A stretch of DNA of 60,395 nucleotides, the filler included, from Sluysia triapertura (taxonomy: Eukaryota): NCBI GenBank assembly GCA_046118255.1. It is 5 parts of 5 records of this genome, joined end to end, with 100 filler letters (N's around TTAATTAATTAA, not from the genome) between each part and the next. Parts side by side here need not be neighbours in the genome. Positions count along the whole stretch, not along the records: positions 1 to 11,320 come from JBJNIA010186023.1; 4 more parts are not named here. One strand, given 5' to 3'. The notes beneath the pieces are model-generated. The model searched no databases, had not been told where the DNA came from, and saw nothing but the letters and a program-made list of their open reading frames with translations. Of the stretch, positions 1 to 48,544 are shown one piece after another. The position numbers and the translations under genes were made by a program. Within the stretch, counting starts at the first letter, position 1. Every line of letters begins with the position of its first letter.

Positions 1-223
1 TACAAAACAGAAAATACAACTCGGTGATATGAGACGTCCTTGAAAATAATACAAATGAATCAAATCAAAATGACTAGATCTCAAAACTAGCGATAACATT
101 TATAACAATATCAGTAAAACAATATTCTATCCAAGGTAACCAGAGGTGACGAAAAAAGATCAATATCTTAAAAGAGTCAAAATAATAATAGTTAAGTATT
201 TTTGAATAATTTTATCTTAACTT

Positions 224-414
224 AATAGTAGTTAATGTTATAAAATAATTTGGGCAGGGATTCTACCAAAAATCAGTTTATCAATACTTAAAAATTAAAA
301 TAATAATGTTTTTTAAATACTTTAAATTAATTCTACTCTAATCTAATAGTAGTTGATATTACAAAACAATTTTGGCAGGGATCCTCCCAAAAATAAGTTT
401 ATCAATAACTAAAA
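224..414. repeat. Imperfect direct duplication (~70-bp core, ~120-bp period)
   Basis: aatagtagttaatgttataaaataatttgggcagggattctaccaaaaatcagtttatcaata at ~224 recurs as aatagtagttgatattacaaaacaattttggcagggatcctcccaaaaataagtttatcaata at ~345. Confidence 0.8.
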
Positions 415-479
415 TAAATTAAAAATTCCCCAGAAAAATTTTATTTTGCCAAAAATAATGAAAATAAAATAACAAACAA

Positions 480-946
480 ATATGATTAAAGTTTTTAAGG
501 CATTCAAGAGGCTCTAGATGTTTTCACCTTCACATTAATTATTACTATACTAGATTTATTCTTAACACTAATAACATTCATTTTATTTCTCAAATATTTT
601 ATAAGATATTCAAAGATCTTAGATGCTCATCAAGGTTTCAAAAATACTTAAAGGTTAATAAAATCTCAGATGATCTCAAGGTTCACAAGCTGAAAAGTAC
701 TCTAATTCTTCAAAGGTTTTTCAAGTCCATTTCAAGCTTTCCTGATGTATCAACACCTTATATAGGTCTTGGGAACTCTAAGGTATTCTTCAGTTATCAA
801 CCTCACTATAGATTTTTTCGTCTTCATAATTTTTACTCCAACAATATTTTATTATTCCTATTCTATTTTGTATATATTCTTCATATATTTGTAATTTTCG
901 AGCGTTTCCCATCCATCTTCTGTTCCACCCCATGGCAGTACCAATG
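480..946 (-). mobile_element. Dispersed repeat family B, copy 1 (probable LTR fragment)
   Basis: Colinear similarity to 19100-19576 (aaggcattcaagaggctctagatgttttcacc vs aaggtactcagggattctagatgtttcact; ggtcttgggaactc vs ggtctttggaactc; ggcagtaccaa vs ggcaatcccaa). Minus-strand TATA-like cctatataagg at 756-766. Boundaries approximate. Confidence 0.55.
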
Positions 947-3779
947 TAAATTTTTATTACACTTAAGGATAATTTAAAAGTAATAATAAAGAATTATCAA
1001 ATCGAACTAATAATTAATTTAAGAAATATCAGATATTTTGACAATTTTAAAACACATAAAGATATTATATTTGACGTTTTAGATTCAAGTTTAATGATTC
1101 AGTTTTAGATATAAAGCTAGATATTTCAAGAGTTGATACATCTACAGACTATTGAGATATTGACAACTTTACTATTAGTGATTTTTTTCCAATTCTAATA
1201 AAGGCACTTTGTTAATTTTACTTGGCTTAATAATGTTTAATTGTAAGTTTTAATGAAATTACAAAGTATTTATGTTATGATTTGAGTTAACCAGCATATT
1301 TTGTAAAGCAGTCGAATATCGTAAGCTATATTTTAATAACTACATTTTTGTTAAAGACCTTAAGTCGTTTTCTTCATTCTGTAAGCGCCTTAAGCGTCAT
1401 CTTGACTATGTTATTGATGATTTTAAAATCATGTATTTTACTTTAAGTAAATTGAGTCACGATTTAATTATTTAAAATTTCCAATTTTAAAGTTATTTAT
1501 TTTAATACTTCTTTAAAATTTTTATTTTCTTCATTAGATGGCACCTCACAAACTTAACGTTTACCTTGTTCTTAATTATTTCTACTGCCTGAGTTATTTC
1601 TACTTGTATTTTTATTAGAAACCAACTTTATTTTATTGCCCTATACTAATTAAACTGTTTTTTGGTGTCGTAACATCTTATTTTATTACTCTATGGATAC
1701 AACTTATAATTGTTATTATGTATTGCCCGAAAAATTGCCAAATTTAGCAATATTTTGATTATCAGAAAACCTATTAGATTGTAGTGTAATTCTTGCCCTA
1801 CTTTCTTTATTTGAAGCTTTTTGTATTATTTCATCTAAAACTACCTTACAAAATTAATAGATTCTTTGTCCGTCTATGATCAACAATTTATGTTCCTAGG
1901 AAAGACGTTGCTAAAGGATTTTTGTTATATATTACTACTACTTTAAAGAAAAATTAACTAATCATGCATTTTTGTATTATTTTAAATCTGAGGATATTTG
2001 TGCTATCAACAATGGAATTCAATTTCAGGTAATTCATATAATTCTTTTATAATCTTTGCCAACTTTCTTTCAATAACCAATCAGTTAATACAATAAAAAT
2101 ATGTGCACATGTGACTAGTAAATAATTAATTATTAAGATTACTTTTAACAAATTCGAGATTTTAATACTAGTTTTTTATAGTAGTAAAAATTTACAAAAA
2201 ATCCTAACAAAATATAACTTACAATTGCAATAACAGATACAACTTTGAAGTAAAATCAATTTTCATCTATGACTGGATGAGAATCTGAATATCTTATTGA
2301 TAGTTAATAAGTCAATGGTAACGAATACCAACAATAAATATCAATATTAAGTATCAAAGGTAACTGCCACAAAATGGACCAATTCTAAATACCAGTGATA
2401 CATGCCGAAGGAAAATATCAATAATGAATGCCAGTTATAAATAATGTATTTATTTTTCTTTATTCTTGTTGCTGGATAAGGGTGGACCTGAGGGTCAAGA
2501 CTAAGGATAACATTGTTAAAGAATTAAGATGAGACATTAAGAAGAAATAAAATGGTAGGATAAGTATATAAAATATTTAAATCGAAATAAAATAATGAGA
2601 AATACGAAGAAATAACACTTTACAGGGTTGTATTTGTTAAAATATTAAAGTACATTTCTTAATTAACTTAATTAAAATTGGACTAATTTCATAATTCAAT
2701 AAAAATGTTTGCTCATGATATAATGATATTAAATCTAGTGTATAATGTTGAGTTTAATTATTGGTTTTAATGATGAAGTATTGCGAAGCACGTTAAAGTA
2801 AATAACGTAAAAATTAGTTATTTTAATTACTTTTTATAATTTAAAATTAAAGTTAAATATATTCCGATGTCTAAGTATTAATAAAGTATATATCAAATTA
2901 ATACTTACAGAGAGACTAATTCAAATATGTTATTGAACTTATTTTGCAAAAATTCCTGTGAGAAAAATTTATTATTCCATTAATTTTCTCTTTAAATTAA
3001 GTTGACGAATTACATTAATAATATAATAACAATAAAATAATGATTATAAATTTTAATTAGGTGATATTCAAAGTCTAAGGGGATTGTTTACGACAAATCC
3101 CTTTATCTTTGGATAATTAAAATGATAATAAAATTGAACATAAACTGAAATTGCTGTCGAAATTTAATCAGCGAAACTGGTCGGCTTATTGCCGACTTAT
3201 TCAATTTCTGATTTTTAATTTCACTAATTATCATAAAACAGCTATACAAACAGTTACATTTTTGCAATAGAAGTAGGGTTAAAAGAAATCAAACTTTTTA
3301 ACTGTAAGGAAGCTGCTTTAGTTCATCAGTGGATAACGGTGAAAATAAAGTTATTTCTTTAGCAATCGATTTTTAGAACAAGGGTTAATAATATATTTCT
3401 CACTGCTTATATTTTGCAATAATATTGGTGCTAAAATTTAAGTAAGTTGTGTCAACCCTAGTTGTGATTTGTCTTTAAAGAATAAGTTACATTTTTAGAA
3501 AGAGCTATTTGTATTGCCATTTTATAAAGAATAATTTATATATTTCAGTTGTAATATAAAGAATATAAAGAATATATCGAGATTTTGAATTTATTTAGTT
3601 ATTGAGTTTTAATTTAATCATTTGGGAAAATAAAAATACCAAAAGGTACAACATAAATTTTGTTTCCCCCAGTAAAGGTTTTAATCAAAGAATAAGATTA
3701 TAATTTCAGATTTAATATTATATGACAAAAACAAAAGAAAATGAGAAATTAATAATAAGCCAGCACGATCTTTTGTACT

Positions 3780-4520
3780 CTAACTGAAATCTTTCGATGA
3801 AATCAAGATGTACTTTAAGGTTGGGATGAAGAAGCTCAGTGCAGCGCTTTTCGTTCCATTTAAAAGGAAAATCTGTAGAAGCTTATTTAAACGAGAATAA
3901 AAATGCATGGCAAAATTTAATTAGTGACTTTCGAAACAAATAGTCGCCTAAATATCTTAAATTCGTTAATTTTAAAACCTTTTGAAACAGGATACAAGGT
4001 AGCAAGGAAACAGTTACACAATTTTTATTCGATTTTAAACAATTAGCAAATAAGGCGTCCTTAAGTTTTACACATGAACAAAAAATCGAATTAATTACTG
4101 AAAAATTTATATATGAGTGTAAGGAACCAATAGGAACACAGCTTTAATGCTAGACCTAACTAATTTAGATGATTTTATACAAAAATTCTCTAATATAGAA
4201 AGTAGAACGGGAATTACACACCAGTACAATGTGATTAACATTGAACCCATAATTCGTACCAATGACAAATGAATAAATCTTCGAATAATCAAAATAATTT
4301 CAAATACAATAGTCCCTAGAATGATGTAGGTTTTTATAATGATAGAAATAAAATGTATAACAATAATAATATAAGGAGTTTTAGACAGGTACACCATTTA
4401 ATAGATATAATAGAAGAAATACGTGTAATAGAGCAATACAACAAAATAGAGTACGATTTACAAATGAACCATGTGAAATTTGCAAGAAAACATGTATAAT
4501 TATTGGTATCGAAATTCATA
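3780..4520 (+). pseudogene. gag: Retrotransposon gag (capsid) remnant with possible degenerate zinc knuckle
   Basis: GWDEEAQCSAF / HLKGKSVEAYLNENKNAWQNLISDFRNK and IQGSKETVTQFLFDFKQLANKA fit the Ty3-type capsid pattern (W..., LxGxA, W..L...F, Q...E.V..F...L..LA); EPCEICKK near 4467. Confidence 0.7.
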
Positions 4521-4887
4521 AGATAATTATTATAGAAGCAGAAGTAATTCGGAAAATAGAAATAAACGAAAGCGTAGTAAAAGTCCAATTTCTCAAGTAT
4601 TATGTAATCAAGTTGATTCATTTAATATTACTAAATCAATTAATACTGAACATAAAAATATAAGAAATATTTAAATATATTACCAATAGATGATATTAGT
4701 AATAGTGATGAAATAATAGAATTTTTACAAGATAATATGAATTTTCGTAAACCATATTGTTTGCAATCAAAAAGATTAATTAAAGAAGTAGGACATTATT
4801 AGCAAAATAAAAATAATAAAATTATACTCTCATATGTAGATAGTAAACAAGCATTACTAGTGCCGATGACTACTACAGGTAAATATT

Positions 4888-5018
4888 TAATGTCATTAAC
4901 TCACATGTTCTTTAATATATTAGACGATATATATTAAATATTAATATTTAATGTTTAATATTTATATATTAATATTTAATGTCATTAACTCACATGTTCT
5001 TTAATATATTAGACGATA
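4888..5018. repeat. ~42-bp direct duplication
   Basis: taatgtcattaactcacatgttctttaatatattagacgata occurs at ~4888 and ~4977. Confidence 0.85.
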
Positions 5019-5156
5019 AAAATTATAATATTAATAGAGATGAATATATTGTTGATTAAAACGGTTAGTAATAAAGATAGTTCAACAGGTAATATTAATG
5101 ATATTGATGAAGACATTAGTATTGTTAAAATTGAGAATAAAATTAAGAATAATTTA

Positions 5157-5206
<50 letters not shown>

Positions 5207-5222
5207 TGATGATGATGATGAT
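5157..5222. repeat. (AAT)n(GAT)n microsatellite in the gag-env linker (poly-Asn/Asp)
   Basis: Direct reading; gives the N/D run in ORF 5040-5327. Confidence 0.95.
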
Positions 5223-5354
5223 AAGGAAGATAATGAGAAAGATGATACTGTTATTGATAATGCTAATGTTTATGATAATAATAGGTATATAAATAAAAAG
5301 TTGAACGCGGAACCAACCCTGATATAAAATGAATTTAATAATAATAATTTAAAA

Positions 5355-7094
5355 ATGTTGGTACAATTTAGGACAATAATCAAAATAATTTTAGGATTAC
5401 AAATTGCACAATCTATTAAGACATTTAATTGCGAAAATACAACAAATTTTCGTTAATGGGCGTAGAAAAATTTATTAAACAATGTGATCAAATTTATCAT
5501 ACTTATCAAGGGAGAGGATATATTTATACAAAAGCATGTGAATGTGCAGTATATAGGAAGAGATTAATTAGATGGTGCCGGACATAATATTCATACTTTA
5601 TTGATTAAGTATCAACAGTGGAATAGTCTCTTGAAGTCACGCCAGAAAATGTTGTAATGTGATACAAAAATATCATACAAGAAGAAATATTCGTAGTAGA
5701 AAGTCTAGCTTACGATGATACTTGCGAATATGGAGAATTTTGACACAAAGGAAATAATATTCGACAAGCGTTACTTATCGATACATGTATTATTGAAATT
5801 AAAAACACTGAAATAGCTTTCGATCCAGATACAAAGACAATGTTAAAAATAACTTTTTATAAATTAAAATAAAAATCTTAATTTTATGGCAAATGTACAA
5901 TTGTTTATGATTTAGAAAATCGTGAATGTGTTTAGTCTATTTAAAAACAGTTAATTTTGATACAATTAAATGTAATATATTTCATCTACTCATGAATAAT
6001 GTAAAAAATATAAAATATAAGGAAGAAACCTTAGTAGATACAACTACTCCAGTTGTATTAATTTCTAACAGAACTGATGATGCAATCCGATTAATAAGTT
6101 CAAAAAAGTTTATAATACAATTATAAAATATTTGTCACAATCTAATTTTAATCTATTACATAAAGATGATAATTTTGTAACTTACTTTAATAATAAAGCA
6201 AACTTTCTTTATCATCATCATTAAAGACAACTAGAAGATCCTTACAGAGAAATGATCATAAATGACTTTAAATTAAATCGCGAAATATTGCGTACAAAAA
6301 TGGCAACTCCAGTTATTTCGTTAGGTAAAGGATTATTCAGTAGAATAATGGGTGAGTTATTACAAATATTTACATGTAAGCAAGTTAATGTTTACAATAA
6401 TCGCACTAATGAATGTACGCATGAACTACCGGTCATTTAAAAATTAAATACTCACCTTTATTTTCTCCAGCATACAAATTGTCAGAGACAACGTGGCTTG
6501 TAGCTCCATCATTGACACCAATACTACCACCAAGAAACCTAGAAATTACAAACATAGAAAATAATATATATTTCTTGATCGAATTCAAAATTTAATGAAA
6601 AGTCGTCCATGTGATAAAAAGCTATGGATGATGCTAGAAAATATTTATTATTCCCACAAACTGGTGATAGAATTTTAACTGAAATAGTACAAACGTTTAC
6701 AGGAGAAACTAATGATAAACCGAACTATGAAAGATTGTTGTTAGAGGATCATTTCGAAAGAGCAGCAAAAGGAGCACTGAAAATTATATGAGGAAAAATT
6801 TTAATATTTGGTCAAACAACGGCTGGTTTCATGGGTGTAAATTATATAATTGTTATTATAAAATTATTCTTTCAACAGGTATTATCTACTTATAAATTAT
6901 ATAAAATAATTGGTTTTATTTTGAAACTCATCTTAGGGATTATTTCTTAGGTTTCAAAGGGTTAACATGAAAGGCTTTCTAGGTTCGAAGAACACCTTAA
7001 TAATAAAACAAATGACAATAATGTGGAAACTGAAAATATTGAATTACATAATGAAAAGAAGAAAAAGCCTAAAATTTATCCAAGGATTACATAA
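5355..7094 (+). pseudogene. env: Envelope-like glycoprotein of the chuvirus-glycoprotein (herpes gB-like, class III) type
   Basis: Ordered motifs: signal-like MLVQFRTIIKIILGLQIAQS then IKTFNCEN; KACECAVYRKRLIRWC (5531-5578); DTCEYGEF; FVTYFNNKANFLYHHH (~6174-6221); LNREILRTKMA..LGKGLFSRIMGELLQIFTCKQV..ECTHELPV (ORF 6252-6440); RKYLLFP; LLLEDHF..(W>stop)GKILIFGQTTAGFMG plus a hydrophobic TM segment (6790-6960). The order matches my recollection of the chuviral G consensus (AYDC..CK..R...CG..NSKF.Y..GE..I.KC..V..C..ELPV..FP..WG.F..FG...AG). Confidence 0.8.
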
Positions 7095-7192
7095 GCATTG
7101 TATAATGATAAATACAATTACATAAATACCATTATAGGCCAAGACAATGCACCTTTCGTAATATTATATTACATCGACTTCGAAATCGCTAA

Positions 7193-7480
7193 AATCCCAT
7201 TGTATCTATACAAATAAATGATAAATGGAAGATTGCGTTGATTGACACGGGATCATTATCAACACTAATCGATATAGTGAACTCAAGCATTCTCAGAAAA
7301 ATCAGTTAAATCAACTGTTATTAAATTATTAGTTATGGCAGGCCAATCAATTGAAACGGTAGGTATAATAACATGTAAATTGTTAATTATGAACAAGTTA
7401 TTGAGCAACAATTTTTAGTAGCTAAGAACTTACCTTATCCTTTATTGTAGGTATGAATACATTAAGTAAATTTAAAAAAG
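7193..7480 (+). pseudogene. Retroviral-type aspartic protease
   Basis: NPIVSIQINDKWKIALIDTGSLSTLI (DTG at 7244-7252); MAGQSIETVG; FLVAKNLPYP..VGMNTL. Confidence 0.9.
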
Positions 7481-7899
7481 TATTATTTGATCCTTCATTA
7501 AATAAATTAGTTACCAAAAATAACTTACAGTAGGTAATATATGTGTATTTATGTAAGTAGATACATTAGTTCCAAGATGGTCCAAAATAATAGTACCTAT
7601 AAATACAACAGCTCAAGAAAATCAAGATTTATTATTTGAACCAAATGATTGATTAACAAATTTATATTTTCTAACTGTATCACGCGAAATAGGACATCCA
7701 AGATGAGGAAAAATACAATTACGAATGGTTAATTACTCTAATAATAATGTGTTATTACATAAAGGTATATGATTAGGTACATTCGTTAATATAAATGTAG
7801 AAAAATTGATACAAAACACAAAAATTAATGAAATAACTAATACTATTCCACCAGAACATTTATCGACTAAACAACAAGAAGGATTCAGAAGCTTTTTAG

Positions 7900-8760
7900 T
7901 AAATTCGTAAATATATTTTCCAGAAATGAATCGGAATTAGGTAAAACGGATGTAGTTAAACACTATATTCCGTTAGATAATGATACACCAATTAAGCGAA
8001 AACCTTAAAGATTAGTCTATTCTCAACGAGACCAGGTTCAAAATCAAGTTAATGAGATGAAAGACAATAATATGATACAGAATAGTTTCTCTCCTTTAGC
8101 GTCACTTACATTGATGGTTAAGAAAAAAGATGGTAAATTTAGATTTTTTGTAGATCATAGACAACTAAACGCCGTCACGAAAAATATACTTTTCCATTAC
8201 CACGAATAGATAAAATGTTAGGTAGGTTAAACAATTCTGAATAAAGTGGTTACTGGCAAATAGAAATTGCTGAAAAAGACTAACAAAAAACTGATAAAGG
8301 GCTATATGAGTTTAATGTGCTTTCATTTGGTTTAACAGGAGGACCAGCTACATTTCAATGGATGTGTCTCATGCTATGTTATATATTTATGACATATTTA
8401 TGTATTCAAAGACATATGAAGAACACCAGTCAAGTATTGCAACGATTGGATTTTGAAGGATTAAATTATCTAAATGTGAATGGGCAAAATCTGATATCAT
8501 ATAGTATCAACTAAAGGGATTCAACCAAATCCTTTTAATGTACAAAAATAAAAGATTTTCAAACCCCTAATAAAGTAAAACTATTACAAAGAATTAGCAG
8601 GATAATATAGAAAATTTATCGAAAACTTTGCAAAAATTTCAGCACTCCTACATTTATTAATTAAAAAGGATTCAAACTTTATTTGGAGAAAGAAATAACA
8701 AGAAGCATTTGACATTCTTAAAGCAAAGTTAACATTTGACCCTATTTTAAGATTTGCAGA
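7900..8760 (+). pseudogene. pol: Reverse transcriptase (Ty3/Gypsy)
   Basis: ELGKTDVVKHYI, SPLASLTLMVKKKDGKFRFFVDHRQLNAVT, FPLPRID, SGYWQI, GLYEFNVLSFGLTGGPATFQ; catalytic YxDD mutated to YIYD at 8382-8393. Confidence 0.95.
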
Positions 8761-8761
8761 T

Positions 8762-9001
8762 ATGAATTTATCATTTATTATTGTGACGGACACTCGTGGT
8801 TATGCTATTGGAGCAGTATTAAGACAAAAAGAAAAGGAAAATGAAAAAGATCATGTTATTGCTTATGTCAGTAGAACAATTAAACCACATGAAATTAATT
8901 ATTTAGTTACTGAAAAAGAAGATTTAGCAATTTTTTTGAGGTTAAACAATTCCATCATTATATTTGGTCAAGGAAAATATATTTATTTACTGACACATTA
9001 G
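8762..9001 (+). pseudogene. RNase H (Ty3/Gypsy)
   Basis: FIIVTDTRGYAIGAVLRQ...VIAYVSRTIKPHEINYLVTEKEDLAI. Confidence 0.95.
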
Positions 9002-9570
9002 TATTTTATTAAATGGCCTGAAGCAAAAGCGATGCCTGATCAAAGAGCTGCAACAACAGCAAAAATTTTTATAGAGAAATTATTTTTATATATAGTCCAC
9101 CTAGAAAATTAATTACTGATCAAGGCACTAATTCTACTAGCAAAATAATGAAGAAGTATATAACTTCTTCCACATTAATAAGACAAAAATACCTTCTTAC
9201 CATCCACAAAGCGATGGTTTCGTTGAAAAATTTAATCATATCTTAATACAAATGCTATCTGCATAGACTAATGATCACCAAAACGATTGGGATGAATTTA
9301 TTGCACCTTGCTTATTTGCATGCCTCAATGTAGTACATGAAGCTACTAAAGAATCACCATTTTATTTAATGCATCTTCGAGAAACCAGATTACCTTTGGA
9401 TTTATCATTGATACCCGATTCATCAAAATATTTAGAAGAAAATAATTATTTACAAATAATGAAAGAAAGAATGAAAGAAGTATGGACAAGAGCTAAATTG
9501 AATTCGAACCTGATAGTAAGATTAATCCAATAGAATTTAAAAGGGGATTTAATATTATTATATACCCCAT
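9002..9570 (+). pseudogene. Integrase core and C-terminus (HHCC region deleted)
   Basis: YFIKWPEAKAMPDQRAATTAKIF, LITDQGTN, PSYHPQSDGFVEKFNHILIQML, DWDEFIAPCLFA..VHEATKESPFYLM, GDLILLYTP. Confidence 0.92.
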
Positions 9571-10879
9571 TACATAAAAAATGATTGTTTGTTGGTGTAA
9601 TTGAGTTTTGAGTTGTTAAGTTTCGATTGTTGATATGATTTAATTATTGTTTTTTGAATCCCTTTAGATTGTAAGGTTGAACTCATCACAGATATAATGC
9701 GCAACACGTCATCGGCGTGTTACAAGTCAATTTCAAAAAAGGGTCCAAAATTATCTCTTAGTGTTCCTTAAATTCATACGTACTTTAATTACAGTGATTA
9801 TTATGACAGATGAATTTAATTTTAACAAGAAAATTAATTACAACGAATTCTTTTTTCGTTATACGTGTCGATGTGTTCCGAATAATTTCACTGTGCAGAA
9901 CACTGGTAAATTTTATTCCCTTACAAGTTACTTTCTCGAGTGTTAACACCATATACAAAGTTATTGAGTTAAAATGATTTTCAAATGATTTTAATTAAAT
10001 TAATTAATAAATGTACTTTTATAATTTTGATATGTAAAACTTTAAGGAAGATTTTCTCTTCTCTTCATTCTTTTTTAATTTAAACATCTCATTTAACTAT
10101 CACAAATATACACTTAACTAATTAAGAACTATAATTTATCATTACCTTTATTTTACATTTAGCTATTATCCATTTCTTTCTCACTTTTCTTTATATTACA
10201 ATTTATGAATACCCTTTCTTAGACCTCATTTTTCAACAATTCCAACATATCTTAGTTCGTCAAAGGTACTTGTCGAATTAAATAAATTAAAACATCAAAA
10301 TTACTTAATCCTGAAATAATCTAAATAAAATTCCACATTAAAATGAGTCCTCTGCTTACACAAATAGTTTTTATAATTCTTAAGAGCTAAGGTGTATAAA
10401 AATATTTGATTTTAAACCTATATGTGTTGTGTTGTTGAATTTACAAATGAAATCACCTGAGATTTGGATCTAAAATTAAATTAATAATACAAATTAAATT
10501 AAAAATAAAAAAGTAATAAAAGTGCATTTTGTAAAATAACTTTGGATTATAATGATATTTTTGGAAAATTTATCCAGTGAATTAAAACTGTTACTAATGG
10601 AAACATTGAAGTCTTGCGATTTAAATAATTAAATAATTAAAGAAAATAATAATATGTTGCGATTTAGATAATGAAAAAAATTGTTATTTTAATTAATTTT
10701 AAAAATGTTAACATATAATCAAATAAACTAGAAACATATGTTAGAATGAATCCTTGTGAAGGAACGATTATGAGTCTAGTATTTAACGTTGCGTTGATGT
10801 ATTAAGCATTATAAATGATTTTAATGAGTTAAAAATTATTAAAATTAGAGGAAATCATATCCTACATTAAGTTGATAAT

Positions 10880-11220
10880 TATATATTCTAAATTCTAAAT
10901 GGGTCAAATTCAAATGGATCCGTAAATTGAAATTTGCCATATTTTTTCTTAACCATTACTATGGATGATATCCAAGAAGTAAGCTAATTTTTAAAACATT
11001 ATTATTTTTCATCTGTTTAATTTGTTTTGAACTTCTTTGCTCAAAGCCTATCGATATCTGTATGACTTTTGTTTAATTGATATGTTGTTTTCTAAGGTTA
11101 TATAATGTTAAATAGTATCGGCTTCACTTTTGTCAAATATTTTTATGAATTTACTCAAATGTTTCAAGTCTTCCTGTTCTTTGCTTAATGAATGTTCTAA
11201 TCTAATAATATTTGCCATTT
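10880..11220 (-). pseudogene. Second Ty3/Gypsy pol fragment (RT N-terminus), related to 7860-8150
   Basis: Minus strand reads HYITLENNISIKQKSYR..QIKQMKNNNVL..SWISSIVMVKKKYGKFQF. Confidence 0.75.
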
Positions 11221-11255
11221 TATTCATTTTCCATTTTGTATAAAATTTATAAACT

Positions 11256-11256
<1 letters not shown>

Positions 11257-11318
<62 letters not shown>
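11257..11318. repeat. (AAT)n microsatellite at segment end
   Basis: Direct reading. Confidence 0.95.
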
Positions 11319-11320
11319 TT

Positions 11321-11420
11321 NNNNNNNNNNNNNNNNNNNNNNNNNNNNNNNNNNNNNNNNNNNNTTAATTAATTAANNNNNNNNNNNNNNNNNNNNNNNN
11401 NNNNNNNNNNNNNNNNNNNN
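11321..11420. other. Artificial contig linker N44-TTAATTAATTAA-N44
   Basis: Exact 100-bp spacer with stops in all six frames; same spacer occurs four times in the window. Confidence 0.98.
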
Positions 11421-12706
11421 AGATAATTCAGCTGAATGAATATAACTCAAATAAGTTAAAACAAGAAGTTGGTGTGTTTTCTTTGCAACAAATAAAACCT
11501 AATAGTAATGCGACAGTTCATCGTTTGTTAACGATGCCTATTGGCGATTAAGTGATTTAGTGAATTTAATATTTATTTGAATTGAAACTCATGATTCATT
11601 ATAGAAGTATTATGAAAATTATTTAATGATATTGTTATTACTATTAGGTTTTACTACAGAACTGATATCAGAGAATCAGTAGTTTGATTATTAGTCATTA
11701 AATGATAATTATTTTTCGTTTTATTTATTCGTTATCAACGAAAGTAATGCGTTGCTAAACTCAGATTATAAATAATTGATTCCCAGCATCAAATAACCTC
11801 TCATTTTGTTACAAAATGGAATTATAAGTTTTCATCACAGCTGCTCAACACTTTATCAACAGCATTCTAAATTTTGGTTGCATTTGAACTTTTTAATCAG
11901 GCAAACACTCTCGAGGCCCTTGACAATGCCTCTCTGAGTAATTGTATAATGAATTCTGATAATATATGCTATTTTGTCTCATATCTCAGTCTTTCCAGTA
12001 GGTTTCCTTCCTTTTTTCGTCATAATTTCATTGTCAGATAGACCCTTATACATCTTCATGGCTAAATACCTTAGGCAATAGATAGAAATGTTCAGCGATG
12101 GACTTGTTATGGTTACATTCGTATGTGTCTTTGTTGCATCAAATTAACAAAACGAAACTATTAACTTTCTGAAACTATTTTATTATTATTTAAATTTATA
12201 AACTTTATTTCTTTGCTATTTATCGATCAATTTGTTAGAAAAATAAAATCATTTGAAATTATAATAAAATTTCATTATATAAAACTAATAGTTGAACTTT
12301 GTTTTAATAATTAGAATTTGTGTTGTAATCTACAAAATGTATATATGTACAATGAAATTTATTTGAATTTGCGATAGTTGAAACATGCTCCATTCATTCA
12401 TTTGATAAATCCACAATGTTTTTATTATGATGATAACTGTTATATACAGAAGATTGTTGATCGTCTTTGTATTTGTTGCAGCACAATACAGTAAGAACTT
12501 CCCGATGAAAAAGGACATTTAAAAGTTTAATGAATAATAATACGTTGATTACAAAACACATTTTTGTTATTACTATTCTACTTGCATCATTCAAAGATGA
12601 TTATTAGTAGTGTCTCAAATATTTGTGCGTTTTTTTTGTTGCAAAGAAAACACACCAACTTCTTGTTTTAACTTATTTGAGTTATATTCATTCAGCTGAA
12701 TTATCT
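11421..12706. repeat. Perfect 72-bp inverted repeats (11421-11492 / 12635-12706) enclosing ~1.14 kb
   Basis: agataattcagctgaatg...ctttgcaacaaa is the exact reverse complement of tttgttgcaaag...cattcagctgaattatct. Confidence 0.9.
11770..12100 (-). mobile_element. Internally deleted copy of the IS630/Tc1-like element at 26340-27020
   Basis: Reverse complement matches catcgctgaacatttctatc..gccatgaagatg..aagggtctatctga..gaaattat.acgaaaaaagg (~26420-26520) and aatgcaacc.aaatt.agaatgctgttg..gagcagc (~26894). Confidence 0.85.
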
Positions 12707-23923: not shown

Positions 23924-24023
23924 NNNNNNNNNNNNNNNNNNNNNNNNNNNNNNNNNNNNNNNNNNNNTTAATTAATTAANNNNNNNNNNNNNNNNNNNNN
24001 NNNNNNNNNNNNNNNNNNNNNNN
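23924..24023. other. Artificial contig linker
   Basis: N44-TTAATTAATTAA-N44. Confidence 0.98.
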
Positions 24024-26192: not shown

Positions 26193-26339
26193 TTAATTAT
26201 TGTAAAATATTTAACACAATATGGGAAATTAAAATGTCTAAGTAATAATAAAATAATACAGTGTTATTACAAAAAATAAAACTTTTGATTGCAAAATATA
26301 AAATTTTTTTAGAAAAAATAAAACATTTAGTATGATAAA

Positions 26340-27020
26340 GATTCAAGAAAGTCACGTACGACTGCAACCACTCTCAACAGTTGAAGGTCGTCAGGAGTCA
26401 GCAGAGGCAGTCAGTCGCTGCATCGCTGAACATTTCTATCTCCTGTGTAAGGTGTTTAGCCATGAAGATGTTTAAGGGTCTATCTGATAGTGAAATTATC
26501 ACGAAAAAAGGTAGGAAACCTAATGGAAAGGCTGAGGTAAGAGCAAAATCGCACATTCAGCAATAATAATTAATTATTCGGATATACAAAGTCTTTTGTA
26601 CAAGTCAAAGCCAATAAAGGGGTCTAATGTGTGCTATTAGCTGTCAAAGTGTTGTCTGCCATGAAATGGTAAAGCACTTCACTGTATCCAAACTACTCCC
26701 ATTCTTCAACACTCAGCGCAACTCTTTATTGATTATGAATAACTGCCGATTCCATCATCGGCAAGATGTTTTGAGTCTCTTGACGTCCATTGGAATGGCT
26801 TTTAAATTCCTTCCACCTTATTACACCTCAGCTGAATCCAATTGAGGAATTTTTGGATTAATTAAGGCCAGTTATAAGGCCTTAATGCAATAAATGCAAC
26901 CGAAATTCAGAATGCTGTTGCATTCTACATTGAGCAGCTACAATGAAAACTTATAATTCCATTTTATAACAAGATGCGAGGTTATCTGATGCCAGGAATC
27001 AACAGATCGCAGTTTATATA
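26340..27020 (+). mobile_element. IS630/Tc1-like (DDE_3) transposase remnant
   Basis: KKGRKP after an HTH-like region; LLIMNNCRFHHRQDV..GMAFKFLPPY/PQLNPIEEFFGLIK (MDN..FH..FLPPYSPxLNPIE motif). Confidence 0.85.
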
Positions 27021-29940: not shown

Positions 29941-32313
29941 GGAAATTCTAATATTGCTAATAGCATTCCTTCTGTCTGTGGTTATTCTTCTTTACCACAA
30001 ATTGCATGTAATTCTATATCTATTCAATGTGCACGGCGGTATTATGAAGATACAATTTGTGGAGAAATTGCAAGAAAACAGATACCAAGATCATGTCATT
30101 ATTCTACACAACTGTGCTGTCAGCGATATTATCCTAGACGTTGTAATGTTACACTTCAGTTAGATATGATGACGAGGTGCCGATCAAAATCCGTTTGTGT
30201 CAAAATTCCTGCTGTTAAACCACCAATAATTGATACTAGAGGAAAATCAAAAAGTTTACATCTAGATAATAAAAGAATATCAGGAGTAACTTTAGAGAGA
30301 TTGGCTCCTTCGACAACCATTGTACCTGACGCTAGTCATTCACAACGAATAACAAGTACAAAATTAAATGCAAGTGATATTGTAATTAATAAAGAAGAAT
30401 CATTGGGAGAAATACCGAGGATTTATTCACAAAGATCATCTAAAAATATTGAAAAATATGAAAGTGGATTTTTAAGTGAAGATATCGTTGTGGAAAAAAC
30501 ACCATCTTCGAAACGATCGGGAATTGAAAGAACTGAAGATAGAATTCAACAAGAGTGCATAATAAATGATATGGATTTTAAATATATGGAAAAATTACCT
30601 AACATAACTACTTCTGATGACAATGTTGAAGTGGGTCTTATAGAAAAGGATTTTGAAGATCAATTAATAAATCCACCTGAAGCAAATATCAGATCTAGTT
30701 CATCACATAGTGTCAAAAAGTCATCATCTCGTATAGTTAGTCAGCCAGTTGTAAGTCAATATGACGATAAACAAGATAGTATTCATCATATGTTATCAGA
30801 AAGTCAAGAAATTGGAAATATGGAAGTATATGAAGGTTCAATTTATAAAGAAAAATCAATTGATAAAATAAGTCAGATTGATGTAAGAAATCCAGCTAGT
30901 AACATTTCACAAAAGAGTTTAAAAGAAGTCTCACAAAAGATGTCTAACCGCTCTCCTACAACCAAATCTAGTGGTAAAGTTAGTCATCAAAGTATAAGAG
31001 AGTCAAGTGGCCGAAGTACACAAAAGAGTTTTAATGGAGCAAAAGAAGAGAAAAGTGACGAATTACCTAGATCCAGTCACAAAAGTTCCAGAGTATCACA
31101 AAGGAGTTTGCACGACATTCCTGGAGAAATAGCTGATGAATTATCTGGAAAAAAGTCCAGCGTACGAGCTTCGACGACTAAGGGATCACAAAGGAGTCTG
31201 CACGACATTCCTGGAGAATTAGCTGATGAATTATCTGGAAAAAAGTCCAGCGTACGAGCCTCGACGACTAAGGGATCACAAAGAAGTATACATGATATTC
31301 CTGGAGAAATAGCTGATGAATTATCTGGAAAAAAGTCCAGCGTACGAGCCTCGACGACTAAGGGATCACAGAGGAGTATACATGATATTCCTGGAGATAT
31401 AGCTGATGAATTATCTGGAAAAAAGTCTAGTGTAAGAAGTTCAATGAATAGAGCATCACAAAGGAGTCTGCATGATATTCCAGTAGAAGTAGCTGATGAA
31501 TTATCTGGAAAAAAGTCTAGTGTACGAGCCTCGACGAATAAAGGATCACAAAAGAGTCTGCGTGATAGCTCTGGAGAAATAGCCAATGAATTATCTGGAA
31601 AAAAGTCTAGTGTAAGAAGTTCAATGGATAGAGCATCACAAAGAAGTCTTCATGATATCCCTGGAGAAGTCGCTGATGAATTATCTGGGAAAAAGTCCAG
31701 TGCCTTTATAACTACCAAAAGTGGTCGAAGTTCAATGAATAGAGCATCACAAAGAAGCATTCGTGATATTCCAGTAGAAGTGGCTGATGAATTATCTGGA
31801 AAAAAATCTAGTACTTTCTTAGGTTATACTAGTTTACGATCTTCTACGAAAAGTCCAGAAAAAAGTGTGAATGAAACTAAACAATCATTTTCAAATAAAT
31901 CTAGTAACAAATTAAGTGTACCACATTTTAGGACTTCAACAAGTAAAGCCCTACAAAATAGTATAGCTGAAATGCGAGAAAGGATGAGTAAAGAACCTAC
32001 TGTAATAGTTGATTTAGATGATAAAATCAGAAGTTCAGTTCTTAGTTGTCGATCACGAGGTAAAATAGATGATATGCAATATACAGTCGAAGATGATAAT
32101 GATTTTTATGCTAGTAGCGAATCGGAAAAAGAAGCCGACATTCATAAAAAGTTAATGATTGCTTTACAAAATATTGATTACGCTCATATAAATAAAATTA
32201 TTCAGAAAACCAGTGAAAATAATAACAATAGTTGTTTACGTCACATTTCTCGTAGCAACATTTTTCTAACTTGGATATCATATTTCTATAATTTATTGCC
32301 AAATACTTTTTAA
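29941..32313 (+). CDS. Large terminal exon (790 codons): Cys-rich start, then Ser/Lys/Arg-rich disordered protein with 30-aa tandem repeats
   Basis: 715-aa ORF from 30166 is open 75 codons further upstream to a ttttattttag| acceptor at 29940 (GNSNIANSIPSVCG...). No recognisable domain. Confidence 0.75.
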   Translation, partial: GNSNIANSIPSVCGYSSLPQIACNSISIQCARRYYEDTICGEIARKQIPRSCHYSTQLCCQRYYPRRCNVTLQLDMMTRCRSKSVCVKIPAVKPPIIDTRGKSKSLHLDNKRISGVTLERLAPSTTIVPDASHSQRITSTKLNASDIVINKEESLGEIPRIYSQRSSKNIEKYESGFLSEDIVVEKTPSSKRSGIERTEDRIQQECIINDMDFKYMEKLPNITTSDDNVEVGLIEKDFEDQLINPPEANIRSSSSHSVKKSSSRIVSQPVVSQYDDKQDSIHHMLSESQEIGNMEVYEGSIYKEKSIDKISQIDVRNPASNISQKSLKEVSQKMSNRSPTTKSSGKVSHQSIRESSGRSTQKSFNGAKEEKSDELPRSSHKSSRVSQRSLHDIPGEIADELSGKKSSVRASTTKGSQRSLHDIPGELADELSGKKSSVRASTTKGSQRSIHDIPGEIADELSGKKSSVRASTTKGSQRSIHDIPGDIADELSGKKSSVRSSMNRASQRSLHDIPVEVADELSGKKSSVRASTNKGSQKSLRDSSGEIANELSGKKSSVRSSMDRASQRSLHDIPGEVADELSGKKSSAFITTKSGRSSMNRASQRSIRDIPVEVADELSGKKSSTFLGYTSLRSSTKSPEKSVNETKQSFSNKSSNKLSVPHFRTSTSKALQNSIAEMRERMSKEPTVIVDLDDKIRSSVLSCRSRGKIDDMQYTVEDDNDFYASSESEKEADIHKKLMIALQNIDYAHINKIIQKTSENNNNSCLRHISRSNIFLTWISYFYNLLPNTF
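31095..31810 (+). repeat. ~8 copies of a 90-bp / 30-aa coding repeat (SQRSLHDIPGEIADELSGKKSSVRASTTKG)
   Basis: 90-nt periodicity (31101, 31191, 31281...), frame preserved, many synonymous differences. Confidence 0.95.
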
Positions 32314-34905: not shown

Positions 34906-35005
34906 NNNNNNNNNNNNNNNNNNNNNNNNNNNNNNNNNNNNNNNNNNNNTTAATTAATTAANNNNNNNNNNNNNNNNNNNNNNNNNNNNNNNNNNNNNNN
35001 NNNNN
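34906..35005. other. Artificial contig linker
   Basis: N44-TTAATTAATTAA-N44. Confidence 0.98.
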
Positions 35006-48444: not shown

Positions 48445-48544
48445 NNNNNNNNNNNNNNNNNNNNNNNNNNNNNNNNNNNNNNNNNNNNTTAATTAATTAA
48501 NNNNNNNNNNNNNNNNNNNNNNNNNNNNNNNNNNNNNNNNNNNN
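48445..48544. other. Artificial contig linker
   Basis: N44-TTAATTAATTAA-N44. Confidence 0.98.

Follow-up and report, generated by a model that had tools for sequence, protein, structure and literature searches.

The window analysed here is a 60,395-nucleotide (nt) stretch, filler included, of Sluysia triapertura DNA (GenBank assembly GCA_046118255.1), and its positions 3782-9581 carry, on the plus strand, the remnants of a retroelement: in order, a capsid, a zinc knuckle, a low-complexity linker, a fusion glycoprotein, a protease, a reverse transcriptase (RT), an RNase H and an integrase. The element spans ~6 kb from capsid to integrase, contains one protease motif and is uninterrupted by any assembly gap, the first run of N lying at 11321. 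The pol order protease-RT-RNase H-integrase is that of Ty3/gypsy long terminal repeat (LTR) retroelements, and an env placed between gag and pol on one strand is the arrangement that defines the GAG-ENV-POL errantiviruses. The first-pass annotation had described just such a Ty3/gypsy element, on one strand of one assembly segment, and we found the same gene order at agreeing coordinates through Pfam matches and through colinearity with a gypsy-like relative, the 2627-residue protein P0001. We consider it probable that the element is a dead, LTR-less Ty3/gypsy copy with a chuvirus-type fusogen between gag and protease, whose active form likely encoded Gag, Env and Pol as a single polyprotein and would have left the cell by budding, in enveloped particles.

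The glycoprotein remnant was searched against Pfam as pieces read in a single frame, with X at stops. The Monjiviricetes fusion glycoprotein family PF24664 matched at 6162-6461 (E = 2.9e-11) and 6606-7094 (E = 8.9e-15). Three further pieces (5444-5929, 5456-5884 and 5926-6126) gave no Pfam match, yet they are 37-38% identical to P0001. Throughout the ectodomain, which is broken by stops, frame changes and short deletions, the pieces are 37-64% identical to P0001, and 13 Cys are left in Env across six single-frame pieces; a Cys-rich glycoprotein remnant had been proposed for 5355-7094. The signal-like start proposed with it is present as a hydrophobic stretch, but one that corresponds to an internal stretch of the relatives' polyprotein (P0001 368-386, P0007 541-559). 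Among 12 relatives scanned by hydropathy, a signal-like stretch lies just before the start of the ectodomain in nine, and an anchor follows the ectodomain in all; 11 invariant Cys, the signal stretch and the anchor are kept in relatives only ~30-42% identical to P0001.

A structural model of the P0001 ectodomain (predicted local distance difference test, pLDDT, 78; built with 22 sequences) has glycoproteins of chu-like viruses as its best BFVD matches (E = 2e-40) and herpes gB as its best PDB matches (E = 3e-14), a fold result that concerns this relative and not the broken window gene. Made on this relative's ectodomain, the structural comparison with chuvirus G and herpes gB that the first-pass annotation had proposed matched both classes, and together with PF24664 on the window pieces it bears out the chuvirus-type envelope. 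The window Env is of the class III type of gB and chuvirus glycoproteins, the HSV (herpes simplex virus)/gB-type ENV of errantiviruses. In the Env tail there is a Y-P motif, which we take to resemble YPxL late domains and which may recruit budding machinery. Of the 15 proteins having a protease motif, 8 keep it upstream of the first such motif, and several distant relatives have it close to the C-terminus and end a few residues later; it resembles a former end of an envelope gene that was captured.

Searched with full HMMER, the C-terminal env piece returned 54 matches, 15 of them at E <= 1e-10. P0001 is the closest database relative (the best match among compared proteins of at least 300 residues) and carries a CCHC knuckle, Env, protease, RT, RNase H and integrase in one reading frame. 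It is colinear with the window from env to integrase, with 48% identity over 579 aligned residues in env, 47% over 463 in RT-RNase H and 54% over 222 in integrase, and a single alignment block (P0001 872-1318, window 6618-7892) runs through the Env stem, the anchor, the protease and the spacer. In 11 of the 15 best matches (13 of all 54) the protein continues past the Env anchor to a protease motif. Of 12 relatives scanned, 4 have a CCHC knuckle before Env within one protein, and a single frame of P0017 encodes gag, knuckle, Env, two proteases and the beginning of RT.

In a 48-row env tree, from which proteins with fewer than 85 aligned residues or no match were left out, the window and P0001 pair with support of 99/98; the 22-row clade around them (99/96) includes the protease-fused rows and is separate from the distant stand-alone-length glycoproteins. 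The window env is 40-59% identical to retroelement-borne Envs versus ~27-30% to stand-alone-length glycoproteins of 640-680 residues. By these comparisons the gag-env-pol layout is inherited and not one-off; the one-off env insertion that the first-pass annotation had allowed for does not fit a colinear P0001 and the in-frame env-protease of the best relatives. Word-index searches with the env C-terminal piece gave no match, and no related loci were found in viral contigs (env piece) or in prokaryote genomes and metagenomes (P0001). P0001 itself is labelled a hypothetical protein and assigned to a Flavobacteriaceae genome bin; its contig is 9 kb long and is likely animal contamination of that bin. 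Among the other relatives, P0003, P0005, P0006, P0009, P0010, P0017, P0056 and P0058 have at least two tandem protease domains after Env. P0058 (4844 residues), of Burro-like size, also has ankyrin repeats and a C2H2 finger, and P0054 (1000 residues) has immunoglobulin domains before a full chuvirus-type glycoprotein, which may be a gene-calling fusion.

The pol remnants were compared with Pfam and with P0001. RNase H matched PF17919 (E = 4e-22) and PF17917 (E = 9e-15), and Pfam RVP matched a 22-residue protease piece at E = 0.085. RT pieces are 39-55% identical to P0001, the integrase is 53-61% identical to P0001 1928-2139, and the protease-RT spacer gave no dUTPase match. Y-I-D-D and gag-asp protease families are present in the relatives, among whose matches there is no BEL-type Pfam family; these features and PF17917/PF17919 we take to be gypsy markers. 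A copia identity was rejected on domain order.

In-frame stops number 12 in 465 codons of env and 9 in 447 of pol. With stop densities so alike, env and pol decayed together, in keeping with the similar decay noted earlier. About 210 codons are unmatched in the window, covering the end of RNase H, the integrase zinc finger and the start of the core (P0001 1718-1927), and homology to P0001 ends at 9581, with P0001 2140-2627 unmatched. This copy cannot work, because stops and frame breaks run throughout, the RT motif is altered, the codons at the RNase H-integrase border are missing and the 3' end is cut. Neither a repeat finder nor blastn of 1-11300 against the window found an LTR pair, which agrees with the earlier statement that no LTR was seen between the parts, and no primer-binding site, polypurine tract or target-site duplication was found in the window; such losses are expected of a copy that is old and cut at its 3' end. 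An inverted scrap of a related pol, with 66% DNA identity to 7786-8146, lies at 10924-11263 on the minus strand; an AAT run and the N run are next to it.

The gag side is less well defined. Retrotrans_gag (PF03732) matched 3782-4141 at E = 0.0044, under the curated cut-off, and a small gag profile built from relatives had the capsid-like remnant as its top window match at E = 0.017 (1608 chunks); the capsid call is weak for these two reasons. The zinc-knuckle remnant (~4406-4520) aligned to P0001 residues 9-36, which lead into the P0001 CCHC knuckle, at E = 0.015. The matches to the capsid-like motifs proposed for 3780-4520 are all weak, and lie at the expected place. The linker that follows contains a duplication spaced 89 nt (4882-4946 and 4971-5036) and an AAT run (5157-5204); from 5013 to 5324 it shares the reading frame of the Env start, with a single stop at 5325-5327. 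The spacing from knuckle to Env start is ~314 codons, versus 248-362 residues in P0017, P0007 and P0001. At ~1770-1840, on the minus strand, there is an inverted scrap like the end of the element's capsid region (79% identity over 56 nt, 64% over 22 residues).

Table 1. Remnants of the element in the window, with the additional membrane protein predicted in relatives (residue numbers).
Feature	Location	Strand	Evidence
Gag capsid-like remnant, with stops and frame breaks	3782-4260	+	Pfam PF03732; gag profile of relatives
Nucleocapsid zinc-knuckle remnant	4406-4520	+	Alignment to P0001 residues 9-36; Cys pair 4472-4486
Low-complexity linker, knuckle to Env	4521-5354	+	Duplication, AAT run, spacing
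Signal-like hydrophobic stretch before Env ectodomain	5355-5414	+	Hydropathy 1.38
Class III (chuvirus G/herpes gB type) fusion glycoprotein ectodomain remnant	5415-6790	+	PF24664; P0001 alignment
Env membrane-proximal and transmembrane region and tail	6791-7094	+	Y-P motif 7074-7088; stop 7092-7094
Env-protease linker, aspartic protease remnant, protease-RT spacer	7095-7880	+	D-T-G motif within 7238-7255
Reverse transcriptase remnant	7883-8700	+	P0001 alignment; catalytic motif altered, 8382-8393
Ty3/gypsy-type RNase H remnant, end deleted	8701-8994	+	PF17919, PF17917
Integrase remnant without zinc finger and core start, cut in C-terminal domain	8975-9581	+	P0001 1928-2139 alignment
Post-integrase predicted membrane protein (relatives)	P0001 2254-2627; P0006 2486-2855; P0056 2592-3003; P0058 4361-4844		

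Env is most likely a segment of a single polyprotein and not a separate gene, because P0001 is single-frame and most of the best relatives continue from Env into the protease; the window sequence after 7094 still aligns to the in-frame linker of P0001. The first-pass annotation had treated env as a gene between gag and pol. Its position stands, and its status as a separate gene is unlikely, since most of the best relatives carry env in one frame with the protease. Several observations weigh against a single polyprotein or loosen the comparison behind it. In the window there are stops at both Env borders, just upstream of the ATG (5325-5327) and past the Y-P motif (7092-7094), the env tail and the protease motif are in different frames, and the linker upstream of Env has no significant alignment to P0001. 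Among the relatives, 4 of the 15 best matches end 22-50 residues past the matched stretch, and P0001 starts at the knuckle, so that a capsid in the same frame is not demonstrated for it. The env tree was built on 126 columns without convergence of its bootstrap, an RNase H tree of 7 rows did not resolve the window's place, and the comparison as a whole is of this one genomic copy with protein sequences of relatives.

These stops keep alive a different arrangement of the same element, in which env was a frame of its own from the ATG at 5355 to the stop at 7092 and Pol was made by readthrough, frameshift or splicing. The ATG with its hydrophobic stretch and a stop on either side would suit it. 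So would the place of the second stop after the Y-P motif (several distant relatives of stand-alone length also end close behind one), the two relatives (P0014 and P0015) that end ~50 residues past the matched stretch, and the description in PMC13524379, as worded there, of three open reading frames (ORFs) arranged GAG-ENV-POL. We nevertheless regard it as unlikely, given that no stop occupies this point in 11 of the best 15 relatives, the nearest one included, and that sequence past the window stop aligns to an in-frame linker. The linker ahead of 5325 being in the Env frame, and the Y-P motif being retained upstream of the protease in fused relatives, likewise speak against it. Stops are moreover common throughout the copy (22 in 946 codons); at the measured density the probability of at least one stop in 56 codons is 0.73.

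If Env was made as a polyprotein segment, the order of synthesis suggests how the particle could have been assembled. Gag would be made first, in the cytosol. The internal signal sequence would then thread the Env ectodomain into the endoplasmic reticulum (ER), and the Env transmembrane helix would halt transfer, leaving protease, RT, RNase H and integrase hanging in the cytosol from the Env tail. Cleavage by signal peptidase would separate Gag from Env, and the element's own protease would free the enzymes. Gag, Env and Pol would be made in equal amounts, with Pol carried to the budding membrane via Env and without a frameshift. This candidate ER-threaded topology, read from hydropathy, is the simplest one. 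We infer an enveloped, potentially infectious lineage, as the first-pass annotation had done.

The layout could be as described and Env still have no part in budding, the element being copied within the cell and Env being a passenger or serving another task such as cell-cell fusion. The element is known here from its sequence alone, and the text of PMC13524379 calls the mode of transmission outside Drosophila unknown, both of which leave room for this view. We think it improbable, because Env is whole, from signal stretch through invariant Cys to anchor, in the divergent relatives described above, and env and pol decayed at like rates in the window copy. It is very improbable that a chuvirus-derived sequence landed by chance in an ordinary gag-pol element, or that the assembly joined unrelated pieces: the junctions do rest on the assembly alone and the gag side is weakly tied to relatives, but env, RT-RNase H and integrase all find their best match in P0001, whose colinearity largely refutes such a join, and env is far closer to retroelement-borne Envs than to stand-alone-length glycoproteins. 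A lone chuvirus insertion was rejected on that colinearity and on the alignment block across the env-protease junction.

The gag-env-pol order, which the first-pass annotation called atypical while allowing that it might have been reported before, is already in print (PMC6431247, PMC13524379), and the literature check that had been suggested turned up such Gypsy elements in planarians, nematodes, bryozoans and flatworms. In the account given by PMC6431247, the env of planarian Burro elements has matches to fusion glycoproteins of mononegaviruses and sits in frame with gag before it and pol after it, which the authors describe as the first example of its kind. According to PMC13524379, elements of GAG-ENV-POL order whose Env is gB-type occur in Nematoda, Bryozoa and Platyhelminthes, and the order is spread over several distinct pol clades; Sacco et al. 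2022 is cited there for the nematode elements. The wording 'polyprotein', 'fused' or 'single ORF' does not occur in the main text of PMC13524379. The window element is a decayed addition to this published layout, and the order itself is not new.

Burro/GYPSM1, giant gypsy-like LTR retrotransposons, have Env between gag and pol, as the window element does (PMC6431247). The in-frame Env described for them is also true of the window's relatives, whereas the window copy has stops at both Env borders. By that description Burro also carries accessory domains (BIR, BCL2-like, MATH, ankyrin, SUMO-like), for which a ~6 kb element has no room, and the window element differs further in being decayed and without LTRs. 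Membership in Burro proper was rejected, since giant size and accessory domains are lacking and the element is colinear with the compact P0001. Platyhelminthes_C1a of PMC13524379 (Smed_errantivirus_1-6, six Schmidtea elements) is presented there with the Ty3/gypsy pol, the gB-type Env and the gene order seen in the window. In Env domains I-II these six share with P0001 and the window a motif series, judged by eye and not computed: Y-Q-E, E-C, C-G, G-x-C-x-G, F-D, C-x-L-x-x-L-K, T-P-x-x-x and R-F/L-V/I. The nematode and bryozoan GAG-ENV-POL elements described in that paper agree with the window in gene order and gB-type fold class, but the bryozoan and Nematoda_c2 Env sequences are, by eye, without the motif series; for Nematoda_C1 this view covers one of 19 rows. 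As described, the PMC13524379 elements are intact and mostly multicopy, and the window copy would fail that intactness filter. Mosquito elements (PMC7642597; methods of PMC13524379) are also reported to carry a chuvirus-type glycoprotein in an LTR retroelement; they belong to the BEL/Pao superfamily, whereas the window RNase H matches PF17917/PF17919 and its pol follows gypsy-like relatives.

The surroundings are AT-rich animal DNA, with G+C mostly 20-30%, and include a rhodopsin-family G-protein-coupled receptor (GPCR) gene, PP2A-B56, a Ras-family (Rac) gene, an ankyrin gene and a ZU5 domain. Identity of the PP2A-B56 exon to its listed best matches, 120 in number and from many phyla, is 74-83%, and a word-index search with the GPCR exon gave no match. 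No tRNA genes were found in the window. A 790-codon open frame at 29941-32313 (plus strand) contains a Ser/Lys-rich repeat of 30 residues (90 nt) and matches no Pfam family convincingly. Inverted repeats of 78 nt (11421-11498 and 12629-12706, within 11421-12706) likely mark a Tc1/mariner-type DNA transposon, and DDE_3 transposase remnants at 26302-26842 (PF13358, E = 0.0015 at 26618-26842) are likely of the same type. Artificial N runs around a 12-nt all-frame-stop spacer occupy 11321-11420, 23924-24023, 34906-35005 and 48445-48544.

In the four full-length relatives (P0001, P0006, P0056 and P0058), a second predicted membrane protein follows the integrase in frame; the window copy is cut before this region. 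Its order is a hydrophobic, signal-like stretch, an L-x-P-x-T-x-Y/H motif preceded by Cys, a stalk, a second hydrophobic stretch that may serve as an anchor, and a tail. The L-x-P-x-T-x-Y/H motif presumably resembles fibronectin type III, although Pfam gave no fibronectin match for P0001, P0006 or P0055 at E <= 1 and no family for this part of P0056 or P0058 at E <= 0.01. Only P0006 and P0058 align in the region (35% over 60 residues, E = 4e-4), and a fold of P0055 aimed at the protein reached pLDDT 30. A thin literature search, including the wording of PMC6431247, found no description of it; the figures or supplements of PMC13524379 may show it, or the single frame. A tentative and rather doubtful extension is that the lineage makes its whole virion from a single polyprotein threaded through the membrane with four crossings, comprising Gag, a gB-type fusogen, Pol and, after the integrase, a fibronectin-like surface protein that would act as the attachment partner required by a gB-type fusogen, and that the window's host may extend the lineage beyond flatworms, nematodes and bryozoans.

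As one decayed example added to a published layout, the element is of modest value. It shows that the gag-env-pol order also occurs in a compact element lacking the additional domains of the giant planarian ones, and it points to a candidate mechanism in which Pol is tethered to the tail of a membrane-threaded Env and no frameshift sets the Gag-to-Pol ratio. PMC13524379 names, in its text, the entry of gB-type retroelement envelopes without herpesvirus gD/gH/gL as a gap. If the post-integrase protein were indeed an attachment protein, it would address how such envelopes enter cells without these partners.

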